64,000 nucleotides of DNA from Escherichia coli (GCF_048403405.1 NZ_CP183129.1); one strand, 5' to 3'. Numbered from the stretch's first letter, positions 5,893 through 9,476 are shown. The notes: generated by a model from the sequence alone, not told the origin. Made by a program: numbers and translations.

Positions 5893-6219
5893 TCAAGGAC
5901 GTGACGGCGTAAAGATAAATTGTCTCTTCACTCCCTGACAGGGGCGATTCTTTTCAAATCGCCATTTCGCCATGGCCTTCACCACTTCATCACGAAACAA
6001 ATTATGAGGCTCTGAGCGGAGAAAAACGATCCGTGTCACAGTCCCATCAGCACCAATATCGAACTTAACCTCAACCAGCCCCTTGATATAATTTGCTGCA
6101 GCATATTCCGGATATCGTGGATACACCGTCACTAATTGCCGGGGCTCATCAGCTTTTTGCTGCGAGCATCCCACTGCCAGGACAGATAACAGAAAAAGTA
6201 GTAAAAGGCGTCTTTTCAT
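5893..6219 (-). CDS. Lipoprotein consisting of a TonB C-terminal domain (108 aa)
   Basis: Signal plus lipobox MKRRLLLLFLLSVLAVGC. YPRYPEYAAANYIKGLVEVKFDIGADGTVTRIVFLRSEPHNLFRDEVVKAMAKWRFE aligns with E. coli TonB [56 protein letters not shown] AGGA. Confidence 0.75.
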   Translation of the reverse strand: MKRRLLLLFLLSVLAVGCSQQKADEPRQLVTVYPRYPEYAAANYIKGLVEVKFDIGADGTVTRIVFLRSEPHNLFRDEVVKAMAKWRFEKNRPCQGVKRQFIFTPSRP

Positions 6220-6529
6220 TTTTATTCCTACGGGTCTTATTCTGACAATATATCCTGTGTTCCAGACTGCCACATCACCACATCCTGTGCCATTATCTGA
6301 CTCACATTACATACATCGCATCGGGATACAGTAGTAGCACTTTCTGTAATACAGCTTCCTGTTTCTTCCACCATCGCACCGGGATAAACCCGCGAATCAT
6401 TAACGCGGTAAAAACCCGGTGTGCATCGTTTTTAATTATCCCCGCACACTCGCGCAGAGGAGTCTCCCTGTCGGGCTGCGGTCTCTGTTAATGAGGGAAT
6501 ATAGCGACGATACGGCGCATCAACAAAAC

Positions 6530-7003
6530 TTATTTCAGGCACTGAGTGCGGATATAGTCCTGTGCCCCTTCCAGTTGCTTGTGCATCGTCATCAGCCGCT
6601 CTCTGAGGGTGAAATAATCCCGTGTAACGGTGTCTGCCAGTTGGGGGCCGGTTGCATTATCCACGCCGGAGGTGGTGGGGGCTTCACGCACGGAGCCTGG
6701 ACAGGTGGCGTTGATCCGCAGGCGCTTACGACCAGCGGCAACGTCAGCGCGAAGAGTTTCATTTTCAGCTCTCGCATCGGCTAATTCCCTCGAGTATTTT
6801 GCATCGAGCGCAGCAACATCGCGCTGGCGCACCTGCATATCAGTAATGGTTGCGTTCGCCAGCTTCAGTTCACTGGCTTTGTTATCGCGCTGCGCTTTGT
6901 AGGTAATCGCGTTATCACGGTAATGGTCTGTTGCCATCCACAGCGCACCACAGGCCACCAGCAGAATAACGATAAACGCGGAAAGCATTCGGTTTATGTT
7001 CAC
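6530..7003 (-). CDS. Rz: i-spanin Rz
   Basis: [14 protein letters not shown]...[20 protein letters not shown]...[19 protein letters not shown] closely parallels lambda Rz. The GTG start overlaps the upstream stop (GTGA); an alternative ATG lies at 6988. Confidence 0.9.
6592..6777 (-). CDS. Rz1: o-spanin Rz1 (embedded in Rz, +1 frame)
   Basis: Lipobox LVVSAC and [30 protein letters not shown] match lambda Rz1. Confidence 0.85.
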
Positions 7004-7131
7004 CCCAGCAACCCCGACGAAGACAACATCATCCAGGCCATGGAAAGAAAAAGAGCAACCAGCATTAGTGAAAATGAAATGCCGACAATTACACAGAGGA
7101 TCTTCGCCAGCGTTATGAGTTTGTCTGACAT
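7000..7131 (-). CDS. 43-aa single-pass membrane peptide in the lysis cassette
   Basis: ATG at 7131 preceded by GGGAGG. Sequence [43 protein letters not shown]. Its stop overlaps the Rz GTG start. Confidence 0.45.
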
Positions 7132-7145
7132 GCTTAATCCTCCCT

Positions 7146-7328
7146 TCACGATTTCAACGCAATGACCAGTTTTGCCAGCCCATACAGCATCGGGGACACA
7201 GCAACACCGACCGCCACCCACTTAATGGCAAAAGCCAGTGCTCTGCTGATGTCATCAGTTACAGGCGCTTTCAGTTCAAGGCCATTTTTCATAGTCAACC
7301 TCAACAGAATTCGTTTACACTTCGCCAT
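7146..7328 (-). CDS. 60-aa hypothetical protein with a hydrophobic/amphipathic C-terminus in the lysis cassette
   Basis: ATG at 7328 preceded by AAGGGAG. Sequence [60 protein letters not shown]. Confidence 0.45.
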
Positions 7329-7484
7329 GTTCTCCCTTGCCTTACTCAAGGTCAGAAACACAAAACCTCGCTTGGTGCCAACAAACGGGGTTTTTACTTT
7401 TATTCACTTACGTTTCGCCAGTTCGCAGGATTTCGTGTTATCCGCCCGCGTGGCCATTCCTCATTTTTCAGCAAAATATTCTGC

Positions 7485-8018
7485 TTATCTGTCGATACCC
7501 CAGCACGCCAGCGCGCTCTCCTGGTCACGACGGGATACCTGACCGTAACAGTTGTTTGAACGAATACGGCAGTCTCTGCCACCGTCCTTAATCCACCAGC
7601 GAATCGCTTCGCAGGCACCTTTTCGATCACCAGCATTAATTCGTCTGTAAAACGTCGACGGGAAACACTTACCGGGATCAATGTTGTACGGACAGAATGA
7701 CGCGATCCCCGCTTTCTGGGGTTCGGTCAGCGGCACTCTGATGTTTTTCTCCACCCACGCCAGCGCTTTATCACGCTCAATGGCGTTAACCTGGTCGCAT
7801 TTTTCCTTCGACAACTTCATGCCCGGAACGACAGGTTTGCCATCCACCATGATGGCACCACGGCAGATGGTCCAGATACCTGCACCATCACGGTATGCCG
7901 TGGTGTGGTTGCCTTCCTTTTCATCCAGAAACTGGTCGAGAATGTCAGGCGCAGGCGCACCAGCGGCAATCAGCGCCAGAACGGCAGCCGACAGGCCGTA
8001 TTTGATTTTGGTGTTCAT
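7485..8018 (-). CDS. SAR endolysin (GH24 T4-lysozyme-type)
   Basis: Gly/Ala-rich N-terminal signal-anchor-release segment (YGLSAAVLALIAAGAPAP), then catalytic spacing E-x8-D-x5-T (EGNHTTAYRDGAGIWT). Resembles the phage 21 / Stx-phage R protein. Confidence 0.9.
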   Translation of the reverse strand: MNTKIKYGLSAAVLALIAAGAPAPDILDQFLDEKEGNHTTAYRDGAGIWTICRGAIMVDGKPVVPGMKLSKEKCDQVNAIERDKALAWVEKNIRVPLTEPQKAGIASFCPYNIDPGKCFPSTFYRRINAGDRKGACEAIRWWIKDGGRDCRIRSNNCYGQVSRRDQESALACWGIDR

Positions 8019-8054
8019 GGATATATTAAATATTCAGCCGCTGTCCCTGGCCCA

Positions 8055-8945
8055 CTAAATACGCACTTTAAGATAAGTCAGCCCCGGATGAAGCCAGTAA
8101 GCCGGCACTTTTTTAAAGGGTGGAGTATTAAAATCACGAAGAAGAGCCTCCCGCACAATTGCATCCTTATCAGCACCACTGGCCAGCGCTTCAATCTCAG
8201 CGGCTACCTGAAGATATCCCATGCAACGGCCAACGCGCTTCATCAGCCCCTGCTTTTTATTGTTCTTCAGGTAATCAATGGCAAATTCAATGAGCTCCTC
8301 ACTGTGCTGGTGCGATGGAGGTGTTACTTTCCCATTTTCTGAGATGGTTATTTTCCCAGCATCACCGGATACAACAAAGGATGGCCGGTTACACTCCCAT
8401 TCCGGGTCACTGAAATTATCATTATGAATACTGAAACACTCTGCGAGATTTCTGCTCATCACTTTCCGACAATAATCGTCAAACGCAGCAAACTGCTTTT
8501 CATCGCCAGAAGGCACCAATATCGACCATTTCTTATTCAGCTCAACGACGTAGCTCTCCAGTTTTTCAATACGTGATTCAACATCATCTTTTTCTGACCG
8601 CAGTGTTGACGGCGGCATCTTCAGAGAACAAGTAATTCTTCCCGGTAGCTTTCCTTTGTAGGTTATCAACATATCCTGCGCCTCTAAAATTACGGGGCGC
8701 TTTTCCGGCAACGGTTCGTTCCATTCACATAACCCGGCAGCAACATCCATGAAAAACTGCTTCGCCTGCTTTTTCGCCTCAGCTTCGTAAAACTCCAGCG
8801 TGGCACCTTCAGTACGGTCAAGACTAATCGCCACATCTGGCAACAACAGCGACGCTTGCCCGTCACCTTCCGACTTCACAGTAACAGTAACCTTATCCCC
8901 GTAATTATTTATCCCCTTAACAACCAGTTCATATTTTTTATTCAT
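8055..8945 (-). CDS. Hypothetical 296-aa protein between holin and endolysin
   Basis: Long ORF. Its ATG at 8945 lies 4 nt after the holin TAA, with GGAGAG inside the holin 3' end. No TM segment or motif that I recognise; a coiled-coil-like stretch DDVESRIEKLESYVVELNKKW. Confidence 0.7.
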   Translation of the reverse strand: MNKKYELVVKGINNYGDKVTVTVKSEGDGQASLLLPDVAISLDRTEGATLEFYEAEAKKQAKQFFMDVAAGLCEWNEPLPEKRPVILEAQDMLITYKGKLPGRITCSLKMPPSTLRSEKDDVESRIEKLESYVVELNKKWSILVPSGDEKQFAAFDDYCRKVMSRNLAECFSIHNDNFSDPEWECNRPSFVVSGDAGKITISENGKVTPPSHQHSEELIEFAIDYLKNNKKQGLMKRVGRCMGYLQVAAEIEALASGADKDAIVREALLRDFNTPPFKKVPAYWLHPGLTYLKVRI

Positions 8946-8949
8946 CACT

Positions 8950-9165
8950 TTACTCTCCCCGCGCCGCCTTACGCCGGTCCTCTTTGATTTTGAAATACAG
9001 GTTAGTCAGATATGTCAGCAGCCCAAACAGCAGACTCCCCAGCACGCCTATTGCCGCCCACTGAGACGGGGAAACCCTGTCCAGCAACTGCAGGAACCAG
9101 TAGCCCGTTCCCACCGCTGACGTGGTGTATGACACACCTGTTGTGATTTTTTCCATCTGGTACAT
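8950..9165 (-). CDS. Class II pinholin (phage 21 S21 / Stx-phage S type), 71 aa
   Basis: [71 protein letters not shown] closely parallels S21. Possible dual start (Met1/Met4). SD GGGAG. Confidence 0.85.
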
Positions 9166-9314
9166 ACCCCGTCTCCCGTTATCCGGAAGCTGACAACAAT
9201 AAAAAAGCCACCAGTTAAGTACTGATGGCTCTGATAACTCATGCAGGCGTCTCAGACGCCCCACTGACACTACCGGTGAGTTTAACGATACCTTCCATTT
9301 GACTGGCTCACTTT

Positions 9315-9476
9315 TTATGATGATGCCGGTGCATTTATCTCCAGCACCAGACTTTCTATCTCAACGCCATACGTTGCATTTTTGGTAATATCCGTCAGCG
9401 TCAGTGCATTTAGTCCCACTGCCAGACCGTCTTTTATGGCCTGGAATGCCGGGCCAGTACGATGACGTAGTATCAC
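9315..9476 (-). CDS. Possible 53-aa ORF coupled to the DUF1737 gene (GTGA overlap)
   Basis: The GTG at 9476 overlaps the upstream TGA. Below the length cutoff of the ORF track. No recognisable similarity. Confidence 0.3.

Follow-up and report, generated by a model that had tools for sequence, protein, structure and literature searches.

Between the endolysin gene R and the spanin genes Rz/Rz1 of a lysis cassette, a 64,000 nt stretch of Escherichia coli DNA (GCF_048403405.1 NZ_CP183129.1; the whole stretch is referred to as the window) carries two short open reading frames (ORFs), ORF-A and ORF-B, which encode products of 60 and 43 amino acids (aa), respectively. The cassette is of the phage 21 type (pinholin, signal-anchor-release (SAR) endolysin, Rz/Rz1) and belongs to an E. 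coli lambdoid prophage. The analysis described here leaves little doubt that ORF-A and ORF-B are real, accessory genes of the late operon and that both encode membrane peptides. ORF-B is the constant element of a recombinationally variable slot between R and Rz, and ORF-A is exchangeable cargo. We tentatively favour, as the most likely function, that the two peptides are late-expressed, non-essential modulators of lysis in the inner membrane, with ORF-B acting as a partner of Rz.

Coding evidence for ORF-A and ORF-B

All genes of the cassette are on the minus strand. ORF-A extends from the ATG at 7328 to the TGA at 7146 (7146..7328) and is preceded by the Shine-Dalgarno (SD) sequence AAGGGAG (7332..7338), which is also present in the E. 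coli and Salmonella copies. ORF-B follows after a spacer of 14 nt and runs from the ATG at 7131 to the TGA at 7000 (7000..7131). Its SD sequence, AGGGAGG (7139..7145), lies inside the spacer, 7 nt 5′ of the ATG. The coordinates, the translations and the SD sequences (AAGGGAG and GGGAGG) that the first-pass annotation had assigned to the two ORFs were confirmed. The ORF-A product (RefSeq WP_001446668.1) matches phrog_1115 over residues 1-60 (E = 3.7e-42), and the ORF-B product (RefSeq WP_001280932.1) matches phrog_4906 over residues 1-43 (E = 2.1e-23); no function is assigned to either family.

Approximately 300 related loci were gathered, and these yielded 192 distinct ORF-B contexts. In all 192 contexts ORF-B was free of internal stop codons, ended at codon 43 and was preceded by an SD sequence. 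The SD sequences were purine-rich: GGGAGG, AAGGGG or, in the forms linked to ant, GGGGTGG before an ATG-ATA start. The conservation check proposed in the first-pass annotation thus had a clear outcome, both ORFs and their SD sequences being kept in relatives without frameshift. The ratio of nonsynonymous to synonymous substitution rates (dN/dS, Nei-Gojobori) was 0.41 for ORF-B in frame, versus 0.86-1.39 in the out-of-phase frames. For ORF-A the ratio was 0.24, and for its core (codons 23-60) it was 0.13 at a proportion of synonymous differences (pS) of 0.44; the control frames gave values of 0.98-2.3. Both ORFs are thus under purifying selection that shows in frame only.

Ribosome occupancy, which the first-pass annotation had named as a test of the two ORFs, has been published for a homologue of ORF-B. 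XECs191 of the O157:H7 strain Sakai was identified as a novel translated gene by Hücker et al. 2017 (PMC5597208). In lysogeny broth (LB) XECs191 was above the thresholds of that study, with 30.0 reads per kilobase per million (RPKM) in RNA sequencing, a ribosome profiling (Ribo-seq) RPKM of 12.6, a ribosomal coverage value (RCV) of 0.43 and a coverage of 0.55. It was retained after manual inspection, and in brain heart infusion (BHI) it was below threshold (PMC5597208). PredictProtein placed its product in the inner membrane (PMC5597208).

The hydrophobic stretch of ORF-B comprises 26 residues (residues 11-36), in agreement with the earlier description of the 43-aa peptide as essentially one 26-residue hydrophobic helix. 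The best 19-mer (residues 11-29) has a summed deltaG(app) of -3.8 kcal/mol; the membrane anchor of Rz is less hydrophobic (-2.35 kcal/mol). Two Lys and one Asp lie on the N-side of the stretch, and the 14-residue C-flank carries no charge. From these flank charges ORF-B is predicted to be a single-pass inner-membrane peptide with N-in/C-out orientation and a periplasmic tail of 7-14 residues. The invariant residues are K4, I6, K10, C13, V14, V16, G17, F20, V25, W33 and L36.

The start of ORF-A is ambiguous: many gene callers use the ATG at 7292 (M13, 48 aa) or the GTG at 7361 (71 aa). Conservation appears to favour the 60-aa form, because its basic N-terminus is kept in distant relatives. This N-terminal part (29 aa) has seven K/R residues, and the motif MK[ND]GLE.DAP[VI]T (MKNGLE.DAPVT in the window) is present even in the most distant relatives. 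The hydrophobic segment is weak and rich in Ala, Gly and Val. Its summed deltaG(app) of +4.0 kcal/mol is comparable to the value of +5.6 obtained for the SAR domain of R, and its hydrophobic moment (muH = 0.37) is not that of an amphipathic helix. Of the earlier description of this small membrane protein the basic N-terminus stood, and the hydrophobic/amphipathic C-terminus had to be revised to a weakly hydrophobic one without amphipathic character. The AlphaFold2 model has a short helix (residues 2-14) and one long helix (residues 21-59), with a predicted local distance difference test (pLDDT) score of 86-89 over residues 31-60, and no hairpin.

Public gene calls at these loci are inconsistent. 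ORF-A is called with 48, 60 or 71 aa, ORF-B appears with an N-terminal extension (73 aa), and there are out-of-frame or fused B::A products (P0214, P0199, P0217, P0052). The ORF-B::ORF-A 'fusion' P0214, found in a single Logan contig, and the long out-of-frame calls P0199 and P0217 come from loci in which a further small peptide, A′, follows ORF-B; P0214 was taken to be a frameshift or gene-calling artefact.

The ORF-B/Rz junction and the variable slot

The stop codon of ORF-B overlaps a GTG at 7003 within the sequence GGGGTGA (GTGA overlap), as the first-pass annotation had stated. The Prokaryotic Genome Annotation Pipeline (PGAP) puts the start of Rz at the ATG at 6988. The overlapping GTG is kept in all window-type cassettes, whereas the downstream ATG is replaced by ATT in six distinct contexts, and for this reason we regard the GTG as the better start of Rz (M-[NS]-I-N-R). 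With this start the i-spanin gene Rz (PF03245) occupies 6530..7003. In 933W-type cassettes the ATG of Rz follows the ORF-B stop at a distance of 7 nt and is preceded by AAGAGAG. An Rz gene was identified in 184 of the 192 contexts and not in the other 8. In 183 of the 184 the distance from the ORF-B stop to the downstream codon equivalent to M6 of Rz is 12, 17 or 228 nt (104, 76 and 3 contexts, respectively), irrespective of what precedes ORF-B. In the 228-nt cases further small peptides (A′ and C) are inserted between ORF-B and Rz.

The GTGA overlap of window-type cassettes, like the 7-nt gap of 933W-type ones, indicates that ORF-B is translationally coupled to Rz. With the overlap, the two proteins should be made together at the same membrane sites. 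The first-pass annotation had envisaged an unbroken chain of coupled translation. Such coupling holds for ORF-B and Rz but does not reach back to R, which is separated from ORF-A by a 156-nt gap containing a terminator-like hairpin.

The upstream flank of the slot is R (7485..8018), which encodes a SAR-type lysozyme (PF00959). The first ~90 nt after R and the hairpin with its U-tract (7354..7394; hairpin 7394-7362) are kept in every architecture, Salmonella included, and the variable slot begins right after them, so that the hairpin forms its 5′ boundary. The hairpin lies upstream of the two ORFs, not downstream. It occurs in two sequence types, which have unrelated stems at the same position and show compensatory changes (loci L002, L165, L163 and L166). 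Phage 21, in which R overlaps Rz, has no equivalent of the hairpin. A consensus scan of the minus strand from 6400 to 9400 revealed no sigma-70-like promoter, although such a simple scan could miss weak or non-sigma-70 promoters. A search for structured RNA in the slot gave only a chance-level Rfam match (E = 0.87).

The content of the slot is highly variable. Counted as approximate numbers of distinct contexts, the prevailing arrangements were ORF-A followed by ORF-B (77), ant followed by ORF-B (~75), and a Rha-like gene plus the peptide D, then ORF-B (~20). The order D-B was found in 5 contexts and D-B-A′-C in 1, and a few contexts each had A-B-A′-C, A-C, B-C-DNA methyltransferase or, in Salmonella, ORF-A alone. 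In phage 21 and in some cassettes whose holin starts with MYQM the slot is empty. ORF-B was never found away from the R-Rz slot in the 192 contexts. ORF-B is the constant element of the slot. ORF-A is exchangeable cargo, in whose place ant, Rha-like genes or other tiny membrane peptides can stand, and the two ORFs do not form an obligate pair. The GC content of the slot is 0.45-0.49, versus 0.52-0.61 in R and Rz.

The other tiny transmembrane (TM) ORFs of the slot, to which no functions are assigned, include peptide C, which is in ORF-A's phrog_4493/3246, peptide D (phrog_6632), and members of phrog_12997 and phrog_14810. Counted by PHROG, tiny TM peptides of five or more families gather in this one slot. 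Up to four different tiny TM ORFs can be present between R and Rz (L356, 2196-2745). One locus has a D/C-like peptide ending with IRWW (L325, 2370-2564), and in another a 255-aa DNA-methyltransferase-like gene with a DPPY motif lies between peptide C and Rz (L280, 2753-3520). A hydrophobic ORF of 34-35 aa (MxMICFxxAxxLA..G...W.WFLxVGxxxM) was observed at the 3′ end of the lysozyme gene in Salmonella (L166, 3208-3312) and in locus L306 (3698-3805). In L166 it overlaps the stop codon of the lysozyme gene. The ORF matches phrog_14810 weakly and may be another conserved micro-peptide of the junction.

In the 5′ to 3′ direction of the minus strand the cassette consists of the holin gene, the gene of a DUF1327 protein, R, the 156-nt gap, ORF-A, the 14-nt spacer, ORF-B, Rz/Rz1 and the gene of a lipoprotein with a TonB C-terminal domain. 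The holin (8950..9165) is a phage-21-type class II holin, or pinholin (PF04971). Its dual start (9154-9165, minus strand) reads MYQM, with no Lys in the extension; the corresponding sequence is MKSM in phage 21 and IHQM or MNQM in relatives. In phage 21 the extra basic residue in the longer holin product, S21-71, makes S21-71 an antiholin. With the MYQM dual start the longer holin product would be made without that residue.

The gene between holin and endolysin belongs to the DUF1327/YdfR family (8055-8948, minus strand) and encodes a protein of 296 aa (8055..8945), for which phrog_1085 is a full-length match (E = 1.2e-189). The GC content of the gene (0.44-0.49) is below that of S, R and Rz. 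In the identical locus of E. coli 7/2 PGAP calls only a truncated YdfR pseudogene. This position is a second cargo slot of the cassette, occupied in relatives by versions of 104-263 aa. The o-spanin lipoprotein gene Rz1 (PF06085; 6592..6777, minus strand) is embedded in Rz. Downstream of Rz/Rz1 lies the gene of the lipoprotein with the TonB C-terminal domain (PF03544; window 5893-6219, minus strand). The best PHROG match of this lipoprotein, phrog_1267, is labelled 'Rz-like spanin', a label that looks wrong. In phage 21 a protein with a TonB C-terminal domain is likewise encoded in the region downstream of Rz/Rz1.

Distribution and annotation

ORF-B DNA occurs 4,656 times in total in 1,749 of 5,426 complete E. 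coli genomes, with up to 11 copies in one genome. A tblastn search detected it in 276 phage records, mostly of Shiga toxin (Stx)-converting phages, with 65-100% aa identity and usually without annotation. In the reference record of phage 933W the 153-nt gap between ant and Rz, which holds ORF-B, is left blank (NC_000924.1 27424-27576; L174 1425-1577). The ant-Rz gap of Min27 is likewise empty, and many Stx-phage records of the LC series have no feature under the ORF-B match. In a search of 5.8 billion proteins all named matches of ORF-B were from Escherichia coli. By identity its closest relatives are XECs191, EDL933_1392 and BP-4795 ORF50, all of them uncharacterised. They are of the ORF-B family and are located immediately 5′ of Rz (67% aa identity for BP-4795 ORF50) but differ from ORF-B of the window in that they follow ant and are called with 48-49 aa, having an ATG one codon before the ATA.

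ORF-A is much rarer among phage records, of which 14 contain it, and it reaches Salmonella too. An exhaustive profile search of 1.84 billion cluster representatives identified only 22 relatives, and a scan of species-representative genomes detected nothing. In Salmonella ORF-A stands alone between the lysozyme gene and Rz, in a cassette with an HP1-type holin. Divergent members of the family follow tail-fibre or DUF4376 genes, twice as tandem paralogues. Tandem paralogues in Salmonella encode 47 and 55 aa (L172, 3356-3668) or 64 and 55 aa (L173, 165-528) and lie beside a DUF1353 protein gene, downstream of genes of the tail-fibre region and far from lysis genes. In metagenomic contigs, other members were found behind tail-fibre genes, adjacent to a tape-measure gene or close to a portal-like gene. 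Because members also sit at tail and other sites, the ORF-A family is a mobile late-operon membrane peptide that is not lysis-specific.

The sequences are not new, both being already catalogued as hypothetical proteins and in PHROGs. A 100% identical E. coli chromosome annotates both ORFs as 'hypothetical protein' (WP_001446668.1 and WP_001280932.1). When the literature was searched with the accession numbers and peptide strings, no main text mentioned the ORFs, and mentions were confined to supplementary tables. In a comparative study of Stx phages the passages that deal with the cassette list its parts as S, R and Rz/Rz1, with no word on these ORFs (PMC8136144).

Possible roles of the two peptides

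Neither ORF had a match in Pfam (above noise) or NCBIfam, nor in the PADLOC defence profiles at E ≤ 1. Pfam and PHROGs gave no indication of holin homology, and the hhalign probability against an alignment of S21-type holins was 2.8% for ORF-A and 0.1% for ORF-B. A holin-like charged hydrophilic C-terminal tail is absent, the C-flank of ORF-B being uncharged and ORF-A ending with ...KLVIALKS. Antiholin membership was not indicated: the two ORFs are separate genes unrelated to S, and they have no lysis annotation in Pfam, NCBIfam or PHROG. Neither has a Pfam match to DUF2730 (releasin), and neither contains a periplasmic domain or a lipobox, the features of spanins. The antiholin-like, SAR-release and exclusion roles suggested in the first-pass annotation consequently found no support in these searches.

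Two apparent similarities were rejected. The core of ORF-A resembles transmembrane domain 2 (TMD2) of the pinholin over 16 residues (BLASTP, E = 0.003), but in view of the hhalign probability this was not accepted as homology, and the likeness of its [KQ]W[VA]A[VI]GV..S motif to TMD2 was not significant. ORF-B and the membrane anchor of Rz share the string LCV. BLASTP gave no alignment between them, and ORF-B was rejected as a duplicate of the anchor.

Comparison with characterised systems places the cassette close to that of phage 21 (OL657228.1), which has the same kinds of PF04971 holin, SAR-type PF00959 lysozyme and PF03245/PF06085 spanins. In contrast to the window, S, R and Rz of phage 21 have overlapping stops and starts, there is no slot, ORF-A or ORF-B, and the MKSM start of the holin contains the Lys that makes the S71 antiholin. 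The curated record thus bears out the earlier statement that phage 21 goes directly from R to Rz. P2 LysA, to which the first-pass annotation had compared the peptides, is a membrane protein of the P2 lysis cluster that affects lysis timing without being essential; it is larger and multi-spanning. ORF-A and ORF-B are single-helix peptides without a LysA-type Pfam match, and the likeness is one of position, no sequence relationship having been detected. The antiholins lambda S107, S21-71, T4 RI and P1 LydB, small proteins that are co-expressed with the holin and delay its triggering, are comparable by function only; the dual-start antiholins are isoforms of the holin, whereas ORF-A and ORF-B are unrelated to S. 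The Mu releasin gp25 (DUF2730) is another small membrane-anchored non-holin protein of a SAR-endolysin cassette; it has 99 aa, N-out/C-in orientation and an acidic cytoplasmic domain of 73 aa that is required for function (PMC9239132). Unlike gp25, ORF-B has essentially no soluble domain, and the 29-aa N-terminus of ORF-A is basic.

Both ORFs lie on the strand of the late genes. The only transcript likely to carry them is the late one, which under Q antitermination would read through the hairpin and also supply the lysis proteins. ORF-B would be translated from its own strong SD sequence, in step with Rz and at the same membrane sites. A modulatory role would involve the membrane steps of lysis, with the helices of ORF-A and ORF-B, and perhaps of other slot peptides, contacting the helix of a lysis protein that is anchored in the membrane. 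For ORF-B the best guess for this protein is Rz, because coupling implies stoichiometric, co-localised synthesis; TMD2 of the pinholin and the SAR domain of R would be alternative partners. In the tabulated cassettes ORF-B is accompanied by S21-type holins and SAR endolysins. ORF-A may have a function unconnected with lysis.

Several observations weigh against a role in lysis. Phage 21 and five distinct MYQM-type cassettes run from R to Rz without the slot; neither peptide is therefore needed for the lysis pathway, neither is part of the core lysis machinery, and this cassette type can do without both. Some cargo of the slot clearly has nothing to do with lysis (ant, the Rha-like gene and the DNA methyltransferase gene), which makes position weak evidence of function. 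Members of the ORF-A family lie beside tail-fibre, tape-measure and portal-like genes, sometimes in tandem. The Pfam, NCBIfam, hhalign and BLASTP searches detected no similarity to any characterised lysis regulator. A single conserved helical face of ORF-B was not supported, the conservation moment (0.042) being below the shuffle mean (0.077). We also considered whether ORF-B could be a substitute antiholin for dual starts without Lys. The pooled table (3/56 versus 145/6; Fisher 4e-40) was discounted, because the loci were seeded on ORF-B or S21 and the features are 1-2 kb apart. The anticorrelation of ORF-B with the Lys-bearing antiholin start reflects lineage and sampling: the loci seeded on the holin only comprised 55 MKSM-type and 5 MYQM-type cassettes, all of them lacked ORF-B, and the 5 MYQM-type cassettes were those that go directly from R to Rz.

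It is almost as likely as a role in lysis that the peptides are accessory, moron-like products unrelated to lysis, acting for example in superinfection exclusion or in modulation of the host membrane, whose genes were inserted at a tolerated hot spot. Like morons and lambdoid exclusion proteins, they are small, membrane-located, of lower GC content than their neighbours and spread as a mosaic. The patchy occupancy (A-B, ant-B, Rha-D-B, A alone, empty) with atypical GC content is the moron pattern and fits acquired cargo, as do the unrelated genes found in the slot, the sites of the ORF-A family near structural genes and the dispensability of the peptides. XECs191 was moreover seen in uninduced cultures, although that Ribo-seq signal was low and could stem from spontaneously induced cells. 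Classic morons are expressed in the lysogen and have a promoter and a terminator of their own. In the window, by contrast, no promoter was found in the consensus scan, the hairpin lies directly upstream so that lysogenic expression is not evident, and the genes are embedded in and coupled to the late lysis genes. The confinement of ORF-B to the R-Rz slot, its coupling to Rz and the lack of a PADLOC match also speak against this explanation. For ORF-A, because of the other locations of its family, the lysis-unrelated explanation is the more likely one.

It is unlikely that ORF-B serves mainly as a leader for translational coupling, in which case cargo would break the R/Rz overlap, the short ORF would deliver ribosomes to the weak GTG of Rz, and the peptide itself would matter little. 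Phage 21 couples Rz directly to R, the window-type GTG of Rz overlaps the ORF-B stop, and in 933W-type cassettes ORF-B is present wherever cargo parts R from Rz, all in keeping with such a leader. However, ORF-B is under amino-acid selection in frame only, with 11 invariant positions and a length fixed at 43 codons. In addition, the 933W-type Rz has its own ATG and SD sequence (AAGAGAG), and the same position is taken by ORF-A in Salmonella and by peptide C in other cassettes.

The ORFs are almost certainly not spurious, and an 80-aa antisense ORF (6923..7165, plus strand) was rejected as the real gene: its wobble-sharing frame contains no stop codon across ORF-B in any of the 34 distinct sequences and was the sole control that mimicked the coding signal (dN/dS 0.43), but the boundaries of the antisense ORF differ among relatives, giving 9 to 202 codons. 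In the sense ORF, start, stop and SD sequence are fixed; it encodes a canonical TM helix, is called by PGAP and PHROGs and is the one to which the Ribo-seq signal was assigned.

A bolder form of the lysis-modulator proposal, which we consider doubtful, is that ORF-B is an unrecognised fifth component of 933W-type cassettes that binds the anchor of Rz or TMD2 of the pinholin and sets the timing or sharpness of lysis. If this were true, ORF-B would in Stx phages also determine when, and in what amount, Shiga toxin and virions are released, and the A, C and D micro-peptide families would be similar tuning modules that can replace one another.

In summary, a role of the peptides in lysis is plausible, whereas essentiality to the pathway is excluded. 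About one third of complete E. coli genomes carry ORF-B, as do most Stx phages, where it shares the operon that releases toxin and virions, and yet 933W and most Stx-phage records omit it. If ORF-B tunes lysis, it would be a new regulator for the pinholin/SAR-endolysin/spanin paradigm, established with phage 21, where ORF-B is absent, and it would be relevant to how Stx release proceeds over time. Otherwise, the R-Rz junction would still be a clear hot spot for collecting and shuffling families of single-helix micro-proteins, and a tractable one for study.

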